A DNA stretch of 60,730 nucleotides, the filler included, from Sluysia triapertura (taxonomy: Eukaryota): the NCBI GenBank assembly GCA_046118255.1. It is 5 parts of 5 records of this genome, joined end to end, with 100 filler letters (N's around TTAATTAATTAA, not from the genome) between each part and the next. Parts side by side here need not be neighbours in the genome. Positions count along the whole stretch, not along the records: positions 11,296 to 23,885 come from JBJNIA010096441.1; positions 23,986 to 36,429 come from JBJNIA010108758.1; positions 36,530 to 49,484 come from JBJNIA010069396.1; positions 49,585 to 60,730 come from JBJNIA010188289.1; 1 more part is not named here. One strand, given 5' to 3'. The notes below the pieces were generated by a model. The model saw only the letters and a list, made by a program, of their open reading frames with translations, did not search any database and had not been told where the DNA came from. The translations under genes were made by a program, and so were the position numbers. Shown piece by piece: positions 15,680 to 52,700 of this stretch. How positions within the stretch are numbered: the first letter of the stretch is position 1; each line of letters begins with the position of its first letter.

Positions 15680-16174
15680 AAACAATCATTTACTTGACTT
15701 TGATCACACTTTGATTTAATTACATTATCAGGAATTCAATTTGCTTAGTGGTAAGTATGATATCCAAAATTAAATAATATTAAAATCAAACCATTTTGAA
15801 ATTAAATTAGAATTGATTATTATTTTTCATAACCAATGCAACTAATCATCGTGGATCTGTATTTAACTCAAAAAGGTTACCTTATTCTTATGTACCAATT
15901 AGAATAACACTCCGTAAAAAATCAGAATGATCATTGTAGATGTGGCATTTATCTATATGGTATGTCATTTAATGGACAATGTTTAAGATATGGTGCTGGA
16001 TGCAAATATGCACACAAGATCTCAGAATTACAGCAGGATCCAAACGATGAGCTGATCTTCTCCGACAATCTCAATCGCATTTTGCATCTTATTTCCAGCT
16101 TAAGTTTGAAACCAATTATTTCAAGTTCTTCCATTAACAGTGAATTAGGAAATGTTACCTACAGTGATAACTGA
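15680..16174 (+). pseudogene. Decayed copy of the LTR-associated CCCH-finger ORF family
   Basis: FITNATNHRGS..YVPIRI, then GQCLRYGAGCKYAH and LIFSDNLNRILHLISSL. Collinear with the copies at 49860-51029 (-) and 52141-52700 (+). Confidence 0.65.
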
Positions 16175-17622
16175 AATCATAAAGTAATTCTTTCGTTTTA
16201 TAAAATGTTCTGTAAAAATTTTAACTATAAATTTTTCTTTTTAGAATTATATTTTGCAATCGGCGAATGGACAGTACAAACATAAACAAATGTATCTCTC
16301 ACGTAAACTTAGATTAACAGTTACAATTGATGTTCTGATTTATCTCCTGTTAAATAAATGTTTTCACACTTATTTTTATTTCACCTTTCATAAACTTTTT
16401 AATAAAAATAATTTAATTATAATTTTACTATATACTAAAGATTTTTATAATGGAATGCATGGACTTTGGGAGTTTAAATTACTACATTTTTATAAAGTTT
16501 TGATTAATTCGAATTTTGATTTTAGTTTTATACATAAATGTAGTAATCTTATTGTTTATTGTTTTCGGTTAATTTTTAATAATGTAAGACTGATAAATTT
16601 TAATAACACAAAATTAATGAAGCATAATTATAAATTTTATTTCAATTTTAATAATAATGTACCCCGGCCAAATTAATTAATAAAAATTATTAATTTTATT
16701 AATAATTTTTATAACTTAAATTTTAAATTTAAATCTTAATGTAAGTCCATATTTTATCTAATACAAAATTATTTTATAGATGAATCAATCGAACATAATT
16801 TCATGGCATTAACATAAATATTTAAATTTGTTGAAATATATACGTCACTGACATTTTGAGCTTGTTTCAAACATTTGCCACTGTTACTATCGCTTTTCAA
16901 TATAAACTTAATCAAACATGCAGAACTATGTCTATTTTCTACTAACAAATAATAATTCAAATCCGGTTTTGTCGACCCGGAGATATGATAGAAATTTCAA
17001 ATTGATCATCGAAATACTCTTGTTTTCTTTATTATGAATTGTTTAATCTAGGATGAATTTTGTGATGGATCTGTTTTGAAATGAAAACCAATCCTTTATA
17101 ATTAAAATAAATTGACTTTTCATCTTTACAACTCATTTTTGATAATTTGAACATTGATATCACACCATAAAATTTTGTTTAACTGTCTGCTTTTTTACTA
17201 TGTTTTATAACTGGTAAAAATAATTTTTAAAATAAAATTTTTTGTTCACTATAATTCGTTGTTCTTGTACTACTTTTAAGAAATGTTCATTTTTTAAATC
17301 AATAAAATGATACAGCCAATAAAAAATGATCAATTCCAACCATCACAGTGTACACATTTTCTGTGTAACTAGTTTGTGTCACTGAAAGTACGAATGGTTG
17401 GCCAATAAAATATGTTATTAAACTCAGTGAAATTACAATCAACAGTGACTGTCAGTGATGACAGTAAATAATCCATGCTAATTGAAAACTGTCATCACTG
17501 AAAGCGTAAATAATGGCAGCAACAGTAAATGAGAATTAAATTAAAATGATGATATAAATAGTAGTAATAATAATACATTAAAGTACACAGTAATAATAAT
17601 AATAATTGATAATAATAATAAT

Positions 17623-17671
<49 letters not shown>

Positions 17672-17863
17672 TGATAATAATAGTGGATATAATAAGTTTA
17701 AGCGAATAAGTTTAAAGATAATATGTTTAGATTTCATAAAGGAATAGCAATCTTTCATTATAATTTTATTATTTTCTATGAATAGATTGTGTGAAATTTT
17801 TATTTAATTCATTTTTTAACTTTAGACTGTTTCATTGAGCAAATATCTGTAGTTCTTTGAAAG

Positions 17864-18184
17864 GTGTATCAATACTTTGAAAATCGTGATATTTTCAAAA
17901 TAAGCCTCTTCGTGGTGCAATTTGAAATACATGTATTTTGGAAATTTTTCTCAATAAATTATGGAAATTACTCTTCAGTAAAGGTCTTTTGGTTTAATAA
18001 ATAGTAAACCATTAAAAGGCTAAAATCAACATTGATATGCACATTCCACTAAATGTGATCCTATATCTCAAAGATATACGTTTTTCAACAGGAAATGAAT
18101 AAAACACAATGATTTTACTAACTTCCTTAAACTGATATCTATGCGCAGTAACTGTTATATTTGTTTTAAAAAGTATTGATACAG
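17864..18184. mobile_element. Possible ~320-bp MITE
   Basis: Inverted repeat tgtatcaatacttt..aaa / ttt..aaagtattgataca. The same aaagtattgataca motif sits next to the Tc1 TIR at ~43432. Confidence 0.4.
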
Positions 18185-18539
18185 TCTATATAAATTAAAA
18201 GTAAATTTTATAAATTATGCGATGTTGCTTGAAATTCCAAATAACGAGAATTAACGTTACCTGTCTCAAACGGTTGAAAAATAAAGTGAATTCACGTCAT
18301 CAGTCCTCAATGTGTTAAGTAAGTAAGAAAATTACAATATGTTGTAAAGTTTAAAGGATATAAAAGTTGATATTGTTCAAGAAAGTGAAAAATTACAATG
18401 TTGTAAAATGTCAAATGAGTTAAATTTATTCTAGTAAATAATAAAATATTCGAGAGGCGCCTAGCCCACTAAAAAGATATGTTTTTTCAGAAATAGCTCC
18501 TCGGATAGTTGTTACACAGTAGTTACACTCAATTATTTG

Positions 18540-49584: not shown

Positions 49585-49859
49585 AGTTATTCAAAATGAA
49601 AAGATTCTTAAACTCGGGCGATTAAATGGTGTAGGAGGTATATGGTTTGGTTGATTTAAGAATATAAAGATTTTTGTTATGAAGACTTACCTTTTATATT
49701 AATTATGTAATCCTTGTTTTTTAAATTTATTAATTCAAATTTAAAGTTGTTAGCTAACTTTATCTTTAGAGCTCGAATAAGAAAAAATGTAGACTTCAAA
49801 TTATATATATTTTTACTAAATTTGAAATTGAAAATAAGGATATAATTATTGAGCAGGCT

Positions 49860-51029
49860 GCATTTCGTATATTTCACCATGTCTTCATCAAGTTGCAGTA
49901 TCCTAAGACAACAAATCAAAATTAGTTCATACATGAATATAAAAATTCCTGATTACTTTAATGTTTTTGTCTTTTACTTCTTCATTGAATTGTGCTTCAC
50001 TGAGAACTTCATGGTACTTCCTTTTACATGTTGAATCGCTGGTTGTGTTGCCGAAGAGTACTGTTTCTATGAGGTTCTGTATACGCTCATAATGATCATT
50101 GAATAGCAATATATTGGTGCTGAGATATATTGATACAAGGTATGGTAGAATTTACAGGATGAACCAAATTTGATGCATCGTCCTGCCTCACTGGATTGAA
50201 ATGGACATTATAAAAATCTAATTGGGTTCCGATTTGCTTGAATTGGAGTGAAATTGTTTATTGACATTGTTTAAATAAATTATTAGTGATCATGATACTG
50301 CTGGTTTCTTCAATGTGTCTAGGAATGACCATTGGGAAATAAAGAAGACTAATATTGATAAATTTATTCGTGGTTTCACCGTAAGCATGAGACGTAACTG
50401 CTTTCATATATAGTTTTATATTCGATATATTTCCAATTACTCTTGAATCGTTTGACAGTTGTGTTGTCATTAATAGCTTTATCATATTTCTTGTTAATCT
50501 TTCATTTACAATTAATATAACATTGTCTTGCTTATCAACCGACAAAATGGATCCATTATCTTCTTTCCTTGAGTGGTTGACAGTTTGTGTTACTTCTACC
50601 TTACTTACAATTAATATATCATTATCATCATAATTTTTCTCATCTAATAAAATGTCATGTATACAAATGATTCCTTTGTCTAATGCGGATTGATCAGAAT
50701 CTTGTTTACGTACATATACAACTTTACCCTTATCATTGTTGTAAGTTTGCGAAAAAATCTTTTGAGGGATCAAACTAAACTATTCACTACAAAGAATAAT
50801 GTTATAGGCACTAGTGGCCATGGATCACTGTAATTTAAGAAGCACATTGTATAGAATCTTTTAAAATGCGTCATTGATGCTGATAAAGTTTGTTGTTGAA
50901 CACTAAGCCGATCACCCAATAGAAAGATAACATCATCAAAGATTTTCATGAATTTTGATATTCCTCTACATCAACTAATTCACCAATATAGTTTTGACAA
51001 TTTTTCAATACAATATGTTTATTAGACAT
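49860..51029 (-). pseudogene. Decayed LTR-associated ORF with CCCH zinc finger
   Basis: Pieces in order: KIFDDVIFLLGDRLSVQQQTL, ORF 50258-50773, CPFQSSEAGRCIKFGSSCKFYH (50142-50207), LFNDHYERIQNLIETV. Lies downstream of LTR 51488-52140. Confidence 0.7.
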
Positions 51030-51487
51030 TTAGAAATATTAAAGTTGAAAAGAAACTAAATCGAAATTTTTAATCTTTTTCTTTTGTAAGTTATAATTTT
51101 TTAAACTATGAATGATAATTTATTAAAATTCATGATTCTGTTTAAAGTACTGATAAAAAAGTATGATAATTAATTTTTGGTATCGATCATAGTTTTCCTG
51201 TGATTTTTTAAACAACAATATTATAGTACTTTTAACTTTTACTATTGTAATGGCAAATCATGCAGTAAACTCAGCTACTATTGGGCCTCCAATCAGAACA
51301 ATAAATGTCACTGTAATAAAATAACATTGATTGGACGTCCAATCAAACTGACAAACATTTATATTACGAATAACGGTGCGTAGCAACTGCACTTTATGGT
51401 AAATGAGTAAATGGAACTCTCAACAATGACAGTTGTAAATGATTCAATTTTGATGCTACAAAGACGGATAGGACCAGTCGTTGATGA

Positions 51488-52140
51488 TGTTACTGAGATA
51501 AACTGTTGATAAATACTGGTAAACCAATAATAATAATAATAAAATGGCTAAAATAATAATATTAATAATAATAACAGAAACAAAATGAAATGCATAAACT
51601 TTTCTAATGTCTTTTGTTCTTAACATGATCTTTTCTTTAAAAAATATAAAAGTATTTCTTAACATAAAAATTTCTTGAGATAAAATTAATAAAATTCTTT
51701 TCTTTCATTACTTAAGTTCGTATCATTTATTTTCTTCTAGAGTTCTTTTAAAAAAATGATTCAAATGAAGTTCTTTTTGAATTAAAATAACTTTAATGTA
51801 TGAGTTTAATGTTTTTCGATTATATAAAATATTGAATATTAAAAGATTGTGAACTTTAAATGTTTTGGGTTAATTTTGAAGTAGATATTTGATGATTTAA
51901 GATATAATTGTGGTTCTAATGTTATGGGATAATGAATAAAATGTTTTAAATGAATTTTTTAATGAACATTGATGGTTTTGAATGTAAGTATAGTTTGGAT
52001 GTTGAAAGATTGTGAATTTAAATGTTTTAAAGTATGAAAAGGTTCTAATAGATATGAGTAGGTAAAAATGTAAAGTGTTAAAACATGTGATATTGCGAAT
52101 AAAAATTAATTTGAATTTCAAATTAAGGTTGGCCACCACA
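51488..52140 (-). mobile_element. ~650-bp LTR with downstream PBS-like TGGTCC
   Basis: Starts TGTGGTGGCCAAC and ends CAGTAACA; contains aaagatcatgt and tttatgcattt like the other LTRs. TGGTCCTATCCG begins 11 nt downstream. Confidence 0.65.
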
Positions 52141-52700
52141 AATGTAAATTATAGTCCTATTATATTAAATAAAATTTCATTAAATGAATTATTAACTATT
52201 AACCAAAGTAATGCTGTGTTTATGATCATCAAAGACCATGTAATTGTACAAAATCATATTGTTTAAAGTTACATTGTGTATGCTCTGCTCGAAATAAAGT
52301 ACATGTAAATTGTAACCACATCAATCGTATGAACAATTTGACTCATGAAAATAATCATTTGACTACTCTATCGAAGATTTTGCGTAAAGATCCAATGTCA
52401 TGTGCACTTAAAATAGATTCTGGACAACAACAAGAGGAGCATTATAAGTGATGTGATTGTAAACGATCAGAACGTCGAGTGAGTGTCGAGAAGTTGAAGA
52501 TAACGAAAACAAACACTACAAGACAGTTGGTGAGTGTACCAGATACGGCAAAGATTGCAGATATTGTCACGGAGTTTTCGAATTCCAAAATGATTTTAGT
52601 TATTCGTCAAATTACAATGACCACCACGATAGAATGAAGTCCCTCTTATCAACCTTTGGAATCACATTAGATGTGCTAAATTTGTCTATTAATGATACTG
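52141..52700 (+). pseudogene. Third decayed copy of the CCCH-finger ORF family
   Basis: LLTINQSNAVFMIIKD, then GECTRYGKDCRYCH (52529-52570) and YNDHHDRMKSLLSTF. Confidence 0.65.

Follow-up and report, generated by a model that had tools for sequence, protein, structure and literature searches.

Decayed CCCH-finger loci with host-like domains and LTR-like repeats in Sluysia triapertura DNA: possible accessory genes of giant gypsy elements

Introduction

What kind of gene leaves behind several broken copies that share one CCCH finger and appear to carry different host-like domains in front of it? The question is raised by a 60,730-nucleotide (nt) stretch of DNA from Sluysia triapertura (NCBI GenBank assembly GCA_046118255.1), hereafter the window, along whose whole length all coordinates are counted. 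It is animal DNA of 25% G+C with five N gaps, and an initial annotation had noted in it three decayed CCCH loci (here L1, L2 and L3), read as copies of an unknown open reading frame (ORF) tied to long terminal repeats (LTRs). The explanation that we favour, and to which we give roughly even chances, is that L1–L3 are decayed members of a multi-copy set of accessory genes that underwent splicing and belonged to Burro-like giant gypsy elements; in these genes, a shared RNA-binding core was combined with captured host domains. The copies in the window are themselves dead.

Results and Discussion

Three loci share a CCCH core and a following helix

The three cores lie exactly where they had been placed (15974-16015 on the plus strand, 50142-50183 on the minus strand and 52529-52570 on the plus strand), and the pattern that defines them, which was picked post hoc, occurred three times in the window and in none of 60 simulated windows. 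When finger and helix were aligned together, each of the three pairs scored above all 2000 shuffles (z-scores, z, of 12-17). That a homologous helix follows each finger was confirmed by the post-finger part alone, for which z was 3.5, 4.3 and 6.7 (18, 4 and 0 of 2000 shuffles as good). Searches with tblastn inside the window likewise connected L3 with L1 (E 2.9e-6), L2 with L1 (E 0.002) and L2 with L3 (E 0.01). Judged by these alignments, the three cores with their helices are homologous at the protein level. The finger and helix of L1 and L2 gave no significant alignment as DNA (z -0.15), and the loci therefore represent old subfamilies.

The finger had been called atypical, with the spacing C-x9-C-x6-C-x3-H in its best copy. 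This spacing is that of L2, whereas L1 has C-x12 and the nearest upstream Cys in L3 is 17 residues off; only C-x6-C-x3-H is common to all three. A published definition of CCCH fingers, C-X4-15-C-X4-6-C-X3-H (PMC2873481), takes in two of the three copies (L2 at 9/6/3 and L1 at 12/6/3), L3 having no first ligand at a permitted distance. A profile of the core drew 73 matches from 1.84 billion protein representatives, none with the family core pattern; these were generic multi-finger CCCH proteins with 305 x5 and 5 x6 fingers. The x6 spacing is thus uncommon (5 of 310 fingers) but falls within the published definition (PMC2873481). Pfam gathering scores were missed (zf-CCCH_UNK, 21.1 vs 31.1 bits; zf-CCCH_2, 18.0 vs 25.8 bits), Atlas matches to L3 were generic CCCH clusters that serve as leads only (best 0.84), and a search of metagenome and viral contigs with the L3 core came back blank. 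Unkempt-like, Nab2-like and TTP-like CCCH proteins resemble the family in ligand pattern, in aromatic and glycine positions and through weak Pfam matches; the loci described here differ from them in having a single finger, x6 spacing, a family-specific helix and scores below every gathering cut-off.

Similar blocks had also been reported ahead of the finger (TNHRG..YVPI and TSHAYG..YFPM), a resemblance that vanished on alignment (protein z -0.1 and -0.65, DNA z 0.22). Among 349 pairs of upstream pieces, two reached z of about 5, neither at corresponding positions, and both were taken as chance.

Table 1. Positions in the window of the CCCH loci, the LTR-like repeat copies with their neighbouring frames, and the gag–env region
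Feature	Position	Strand	Remarks
L1 probable S1 (OB-fold) domain resembling the first S1 of RRP5	15273-15470	+	stop-broken; PDB 1wi5 E 0.032 and 0.016
L1 CCCH finger, C-x12-C-x6-C-x3-H	15941-16015	+	zf-CCCH_UNK E 0.0003, 21.1 bits
L1 conserved helix	16058-16093	+	alignment
L1 intron-like stretch	16184-16244	+	61 nt, GT..AG, phase 0
560-amino-acid (aa) open frame	21322-23001	-	lysyl-tRNA synthetase anticodon-domain piece at 22261-22527, PDB E 5.5e-5; without CCCH
LTR-like repeat, second copy	23229-24158		spans N gap; CA then TGGCG on minus strand
Decayed gag-like region leading into env-like fusion glycoprotein	32846-36429	+	env part 35226-36429, ends at N gap
197-aa frame of unknown family	37858-38448	-	adjoins third repeat copy; 60-nt tandem duplication
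LTR-like repeat, third copy	38750-39859		left end approximate
L2 intron-like stretch	49903-49956	-	54 nt, GT..AG, phase 0
L2 conserved helix	50068-50103	-	frame break separates finger and helix
L2 CCCH finger, C-x9-C-x6-C-x3-H	50142-50207	-	in-frame stop ahead
L2 middle segment, 173-aa open frame	50261-50779	-	without known relative
L2 N-terminal cyclin box of cyclin C	50791-50952	-	PDB cyclin C E 3.7e-5; cyclin C in 12 of 12 matches
Palindromic CCAAT-box cluster between L2 and LTR-like repeat	51289-51346		hairpin z -3.4; depth peak 339
LTR-like repeat, copy between L2 and L3	51488-52140		TG..CA ends; summed depth up to 29811
L3 LIN54/tesmin CRC domain and hinge	52230-52439	+	PDB 5fd3 E 2.2e-12; Pfam TCR E 1.2e-4
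L3 CCCH core	52529-52570	+	core pattern; first ligand lost or replaced in window copy
L3 conserved helix	52613-52648	+	alignment
L3 intron-like stretch	52797-52849	+	53 nt, non-canonical donor

Host-like modules precede the fingers

The description of these genes as unknown ORFs no longer holds for their N-termini, where we found host-like modules: cyclin C in L2, LIN54 in L3 and probably an S1 domain of RRP5 in L1 (Table 1). L2 runs from the cyclin C box through a 173-aa segment to the finger and the helix, and the segment drew a blank in homologue searches (among proteins, longer ones only; Atlas; PDB; family scan). This copy has four breaks, near 50790, 50260, 50209 and 50140, and at all four 57-98% of the overlapping contig depth differs from the window copy. 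Because most of that depth differs at every break, the breaks look private to the window copy, and module and finger likely stand in one frame across the family. In L3, a second CRC repeat begins at 52452 and breaks off, with the finger directly after it; a connection between CRC part and finger part, with different letters in between, is also present in two further contigs, whose shorter sides measure 95 and 70 letters. The S1 stretch of L1 lies about 470 nt ahead of the finger. Its PDB match came from one of three frames tried and its sole Pfam match, to RRP4_S1, was weak (E 0.16), which together is suggestive of an RRP5 S1 domain.

An intron-like stretch follows each helix

Behind the helix, all three loci have a stretch of 53-61 nt with a common start (Table 1). 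Taking out the 61-nt stretch of L1 would join the finger frame to the ORF at 16245-16673 (a 143-aa frame). Across 121 kb, the GT..AG form occurred twice (in L1 and L2), a tighter motif drawn up post hoc occurred three times and always behind a finger, and looser intron-like strings numbered 34. Pairwise DNA alignment of the post-helix region reached no significance (z -0.3 to 1.5), and the letters of the stretch can alternatively be read as a short conserved peptide. From sequence features of this kind we consider it probable that the stretch was spliced.

Relatives of L2 and L3 are likely numerous

Contigs of one run (X1) were matched to 49600-53200 at 80% likeness, and 2302 of them fell on these 3.6 kb. 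Summed depth, which is not a copy number, ranged over 354-803 along the coding part of L2 and 191-831 along L3; two contigs matching this locus itself had depths of 5.8-9.0. Single positions were covered by up to 32 contigs in L2 and 25 in L3, and tens of the contigs on these loci were 80-95% identical to them. Tens of loci related to L2 and L3 are likely, and the view of an old, diversified, multi-copy family is borne out by contig depth for these two.

Over the same interval, 24 of 29 transitions had G/C in the window and A/T in other contigs (among the 40 best-supported of 741 difference rows), and over all difference places the two transition directions were near balance (224 vs 201).

Modules swapped on a fixed core, protein conserved though its DNA is saturated, and the anatomy of a spliced gene would all suit a multigene family of the host that evolves by birth and death, such as a sensor of transposon or viral RNA with swapped 'integrated' domains; the three loci would be its pseudogenes. 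This would amount to a new RNA-sensor family. We think it quite unlikely, since all three copies are broken and dispersed on both strands among transposon debris, close contigs (80-95% identity) come in tens, and no relative turned up among the 1.84 billion protein representatives.

An LTR-like repeat adjoins L2 and L3

Three copies of an LTR-like repeat with TG..CA ends were found in the window, all in one orientation (13-letter end motif, 3 found vs 0.05 expected). The copies align with one another at z 2.4-6.7, have an internal motif exact in two of the three, and are too diverged to form LTR pairs. At the same repeat end in every copy, a minus-strand coding-like frame lies 0.2-0.5 kb away (L2, the 560-aa frame and the 197-aa frame), and two of these three frames contain host-derived pieces. 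Among near-length proteins no homologue of the 560-aa ORF was found, and the 197-aa frame drew a blank against PDB. The third repeat is flanked by coding-like frames on both sides (37858-38712 and 39947-40105, both on the minus strand).

The claimed tie to LTRs stood in part: an LTR-like repeat lies 460-520 nt upstream of L2, but L1 has none nearby, and L3 adjoins the opposite end of the L2 copy, starting 72 nt past it. Similarly, the LTR with primer-binding site (PBS) said to precede the best copy is reduced at L2 to a TGG 5-11 nt from the nearest CA end; CA-A-TGGCG is present on the minus strand at one of the three repeat copies. No exact duplication or clean purine tract was seen at the repeat flanks examined, and the sequence part that holds L2 ends at an N gap. 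The statement that pol is not visible was upheld, as reverse transcriptase, RNase H and integrase families were unmatched in 124 ORFs (123 of the 146 ORFs of at least 60 aa, plus one) and in 88 of 1111 short pieces.

Several observations weigh against an LTR element as the carrier, or against parts of that account. At none of the CCCH loci in the window did we see paired LTRs, a clear target-site duplication, a clean PBS or pol, and L1 is adjoined by no copy of the repeat. The orientation of the repeat can be read both ways: past the opposite end, two copies have some 35 nt in common (30 of 2000 shuffles as good). Depth is only 27-82 in four of five bins between the L2 coding part and the repeat, and therefore most L2-type copies may not share the upstream DNA. 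The copy data come from a single run, possibly the assembly's own source. The S1 piece of L1 may be an unrelated neighbour of the finger, because L1 and L2 gave no alignment over the part that separates module from finger, and the tubulin exon that speaks to the host (below) has a long branch and unsettled bootstrap. Finally, that a short intron-like stretch was kept in three of three loci is explained by copying at the DNA level no less well than by retrotransposition.

The kept stretch, the bare L1 and the low depth ahead of L2 would sit well with another history, in which a DNA-level mobile element (Helitron-, Pack-TIR- or Polinton-like) captured host gene fragments and carried the loci as cargo. 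The LTR-like repeats would then have inserted later and independently of the loci, in a region dense in repeats, and their great abundance makes it plausible that they came to lie there by chance. Such a history would mean a gene-capturing element in an animal. We hold this history to be possible though doubtful. No inverted-repeat pair was seen around any of the three loci (short or decayed terminal inverted repeats would escape), no transposase, helicase or Polinton gene lies beside L2 or L3 (the Tc1-like piece left of L1 is a by-eye reading), and all three repeat copies have coding-like frames at the same end and on the same strand. Accessory genes of a giant LTR element, an option already raised in the initial annotation, stay the most likely reading, given the repeat beside L2 and L3 and the host-like domains; the LTR tie itself is unproven.

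A separate gag–env region and comparison with known elements

A decayed gag-like region followed by an env-like gene lies elsewhere in the window (Table 1), set apart from all three CCCH loci by N gaps. The former is RG/N-rich with a CCHC knuckle at 33313-33351 (Pfam E 7.7e-5), and the latter belongs to the Monjiviricetes fusion glycoprotein family (E 1.2e-12). A gag-then-env order is described for Burro (PMC6431247) and also for gypsy elements of flatworms, nematodes and bryozoans (PMC13524379). The proposal that a CCCH finger takes the place where gag normally has CCHC could appeal to the LTR-like repeat upstream of L2. It is now largely refuted and we leave it almost no probability: nothing gag-like surrounds the fingers, no capsid or gag family matched at the CCCH loci (in frames read through stops with X), the N-termini are host-like, and an ordinary CCHC gag region exists separately. 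Since this gag keeps its usual knuckle, the CCCH genes would be something other than gag.

In the account of PMC6431247, host-like domains occur in Burro elements together with an accessory ORF located upstream. The likeness to Burro/GYPSM1, the giant gypsy of dugesiid planarians, extends to a likely planarian host, a CCHC gag with mononegavirus-like env elsewhere in the window, host-like domains, an accessory ORF beside an LTR and decaying fragments, the host-like domains here being cyclin C, LIN54 CRC, the lysyl-tRNA synthetase piece and the probable S1. The Burro domains listed in that source are MATH, BIR, BCL2, ankyrin, Smc, SUMO-like, midasin and dUTPase, and neither CCCH nor cyclin is mentioned in that review (PMC6431247). 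Unlike in Burro, one core is here reused with differing modules and is seemingly spliced. The CCCH genes and the gag–env region lie in separate pieces of the window. Extra ORFs in antisense are known from the LTR elements Grande, RIRE2 and Retand (PMC7264820), which the loci resemble in having an additional LTR-side ORF potentially antisense to the element; those ORFs are reported in that source as without similarity to known proteins, whereas the modules in the window match host genes (PMC7264820).

Host gene pieces beside LTR sequence, some of them from several genes, are also produced by LTR-mediated retroposition, which makes chimeras of at least two genes (PMC5131818). The loci could accordingly be non-autonomous LTR elements whose pieces of host mRNA were brought together through template switching; the chimeras would have been passively amplified, the fusion proteins never having functioned, and modules that are short and uninterrupted fit this. 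The retrocopies described in PMC5131818 are young and low-copy with element DNA on both sides, whereas the genes in the window are old and amplified, with a conserved core and an intron-like stretch. Finger and helix residues conserved across saturated DNA point to past selection on the protein, and a retained intron sits badly with sense-strand capture; passive chimeras are in our estimate very unlikely. Our literature search found no description of such a CCCH family, though the original Burro paper, Repbase, Dfam and GyDB, which lay outside the comparison, may list the repeat or the ORFs.

How such accessory genes might have worked

Under the accessory-gene explanation, elements would have taken host gene pieces into an accessory gene that was amplified along with the element. 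The gene would have been spliced, its intron being kept through antisense reading or because the element RNA escaped splicing. CCCH fingers bind RNA, cyclin C acts with CDK8/Mediator, and RRP5 acts with pre-rRNA. RNA binding by CCCH proteins is also treated in PMC2873481, and LIN54 binds CHR promoter elements (PMC4974476). The finger would putatively bind single-stranded RNA, probably rich in U/A, for which the transcript of the element itself is the simplest candidate, and the borrowed module might engage its usual host partner as a tether or decoy favouring element expression. Candidate partners are the CDK8/Mediator kinase, CHR promoter DNA with MuvB, and the pre-rRNA machinery.

A bolder version, which we rate as unlikely, is a planarian retroelement lineage with a modular effector platform: pieces of core host regulators (cyclin C from the Mediator kinase, LIN54 from DREAM/MuvB and the ribosome factor RRP5) would have been grafted repeatedly onto a spliced CCCH core, so as to tie element RNA to the machinery of cell-cycle transcription in dividing stem cells or to act as a decoy for that machinery, as a transposon counterpart of integrated-domain receptors. 

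What was unexpected is the single RNA-binding core with swapped host modules. Giant planarian LTR elements already carry host-like apoptosis and ubiquitin domains whose function was never tested. An RNA-binding core that stays the same while its cell-cycle and ribosome-biogenesis modules are exchanged would mean repeated, selected capture and not chance cargo, and the modules would name the targeted host complexes (CDK8-Mediator, MuvB/DREAM), making the 'tinkerer' idea testable. In practice, copies of this kind will also be mistaken for paralogues of cyclin C or LIN54 when planarian gene sets are annotated.

Host and other contents of the window

Amid transposon debris, we recognised exons of cytoplasmic dynein heavy chain, a divergent alpha-tubulin and a DHHC palmitoyltransferase. 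The best named single-domain match of the tubulin exon was Schmidtea polychroa (64%; other named animals reached 51-59%). A tree of 35 rows, of which 34 were picked from 120 matches, placed the exon inside a 100/100 clade whose sole named member is S. polychroa. Because of this grouping, the host is likely a triclad planarian. The alpha-tubulin exons lie at 24540-26796 on the minus strand; the last intron holds the remains of a mariner-like transposase (25265-25375, Pfam E 4.9e-6). Three dynein exons lie at 11367-14527 on the minus strand; no more upstream exon was recognised, and L1 stands just beyond on the opposite strand.

The window has four 100-nt gaps (at 11196, 23886, 36430 and 49485), each with a central stop-codon linker, at a spacing of about 12.5-13 kb. 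The repeat at 23.2-24.2 kb is collinear over one gap, which makes this join, at least, look real. Weak Pfam matches to Peptidase_C3, DDE_Tnp_1 and the MTR4 stalk (E 0.006-0.07) were discarded as chance, and broken coding-like frames at 6366-7176 and 20008-20759 (both plus strand) had no family match. By eye or from weak Pfam matches we read two Tc1-like remnants (14650-15100 and 43634-44200) and a long interspersed element (LINE) endonuclease-like remnant (36577-37437, plus strand), a 115-nt piece of which is repeated at 10859-10973. An element of about 1 kb at 31231-32282, with 85-nt terminal inverted repeats 79% alike and without a coding match, is likely a non-autonomous DNA transposon. A tRNA-like repeat, not called by ARAGORN, has two copies that are 78% alike (1291-1398 and 60623-60730) and is possibly a short interspersed element.

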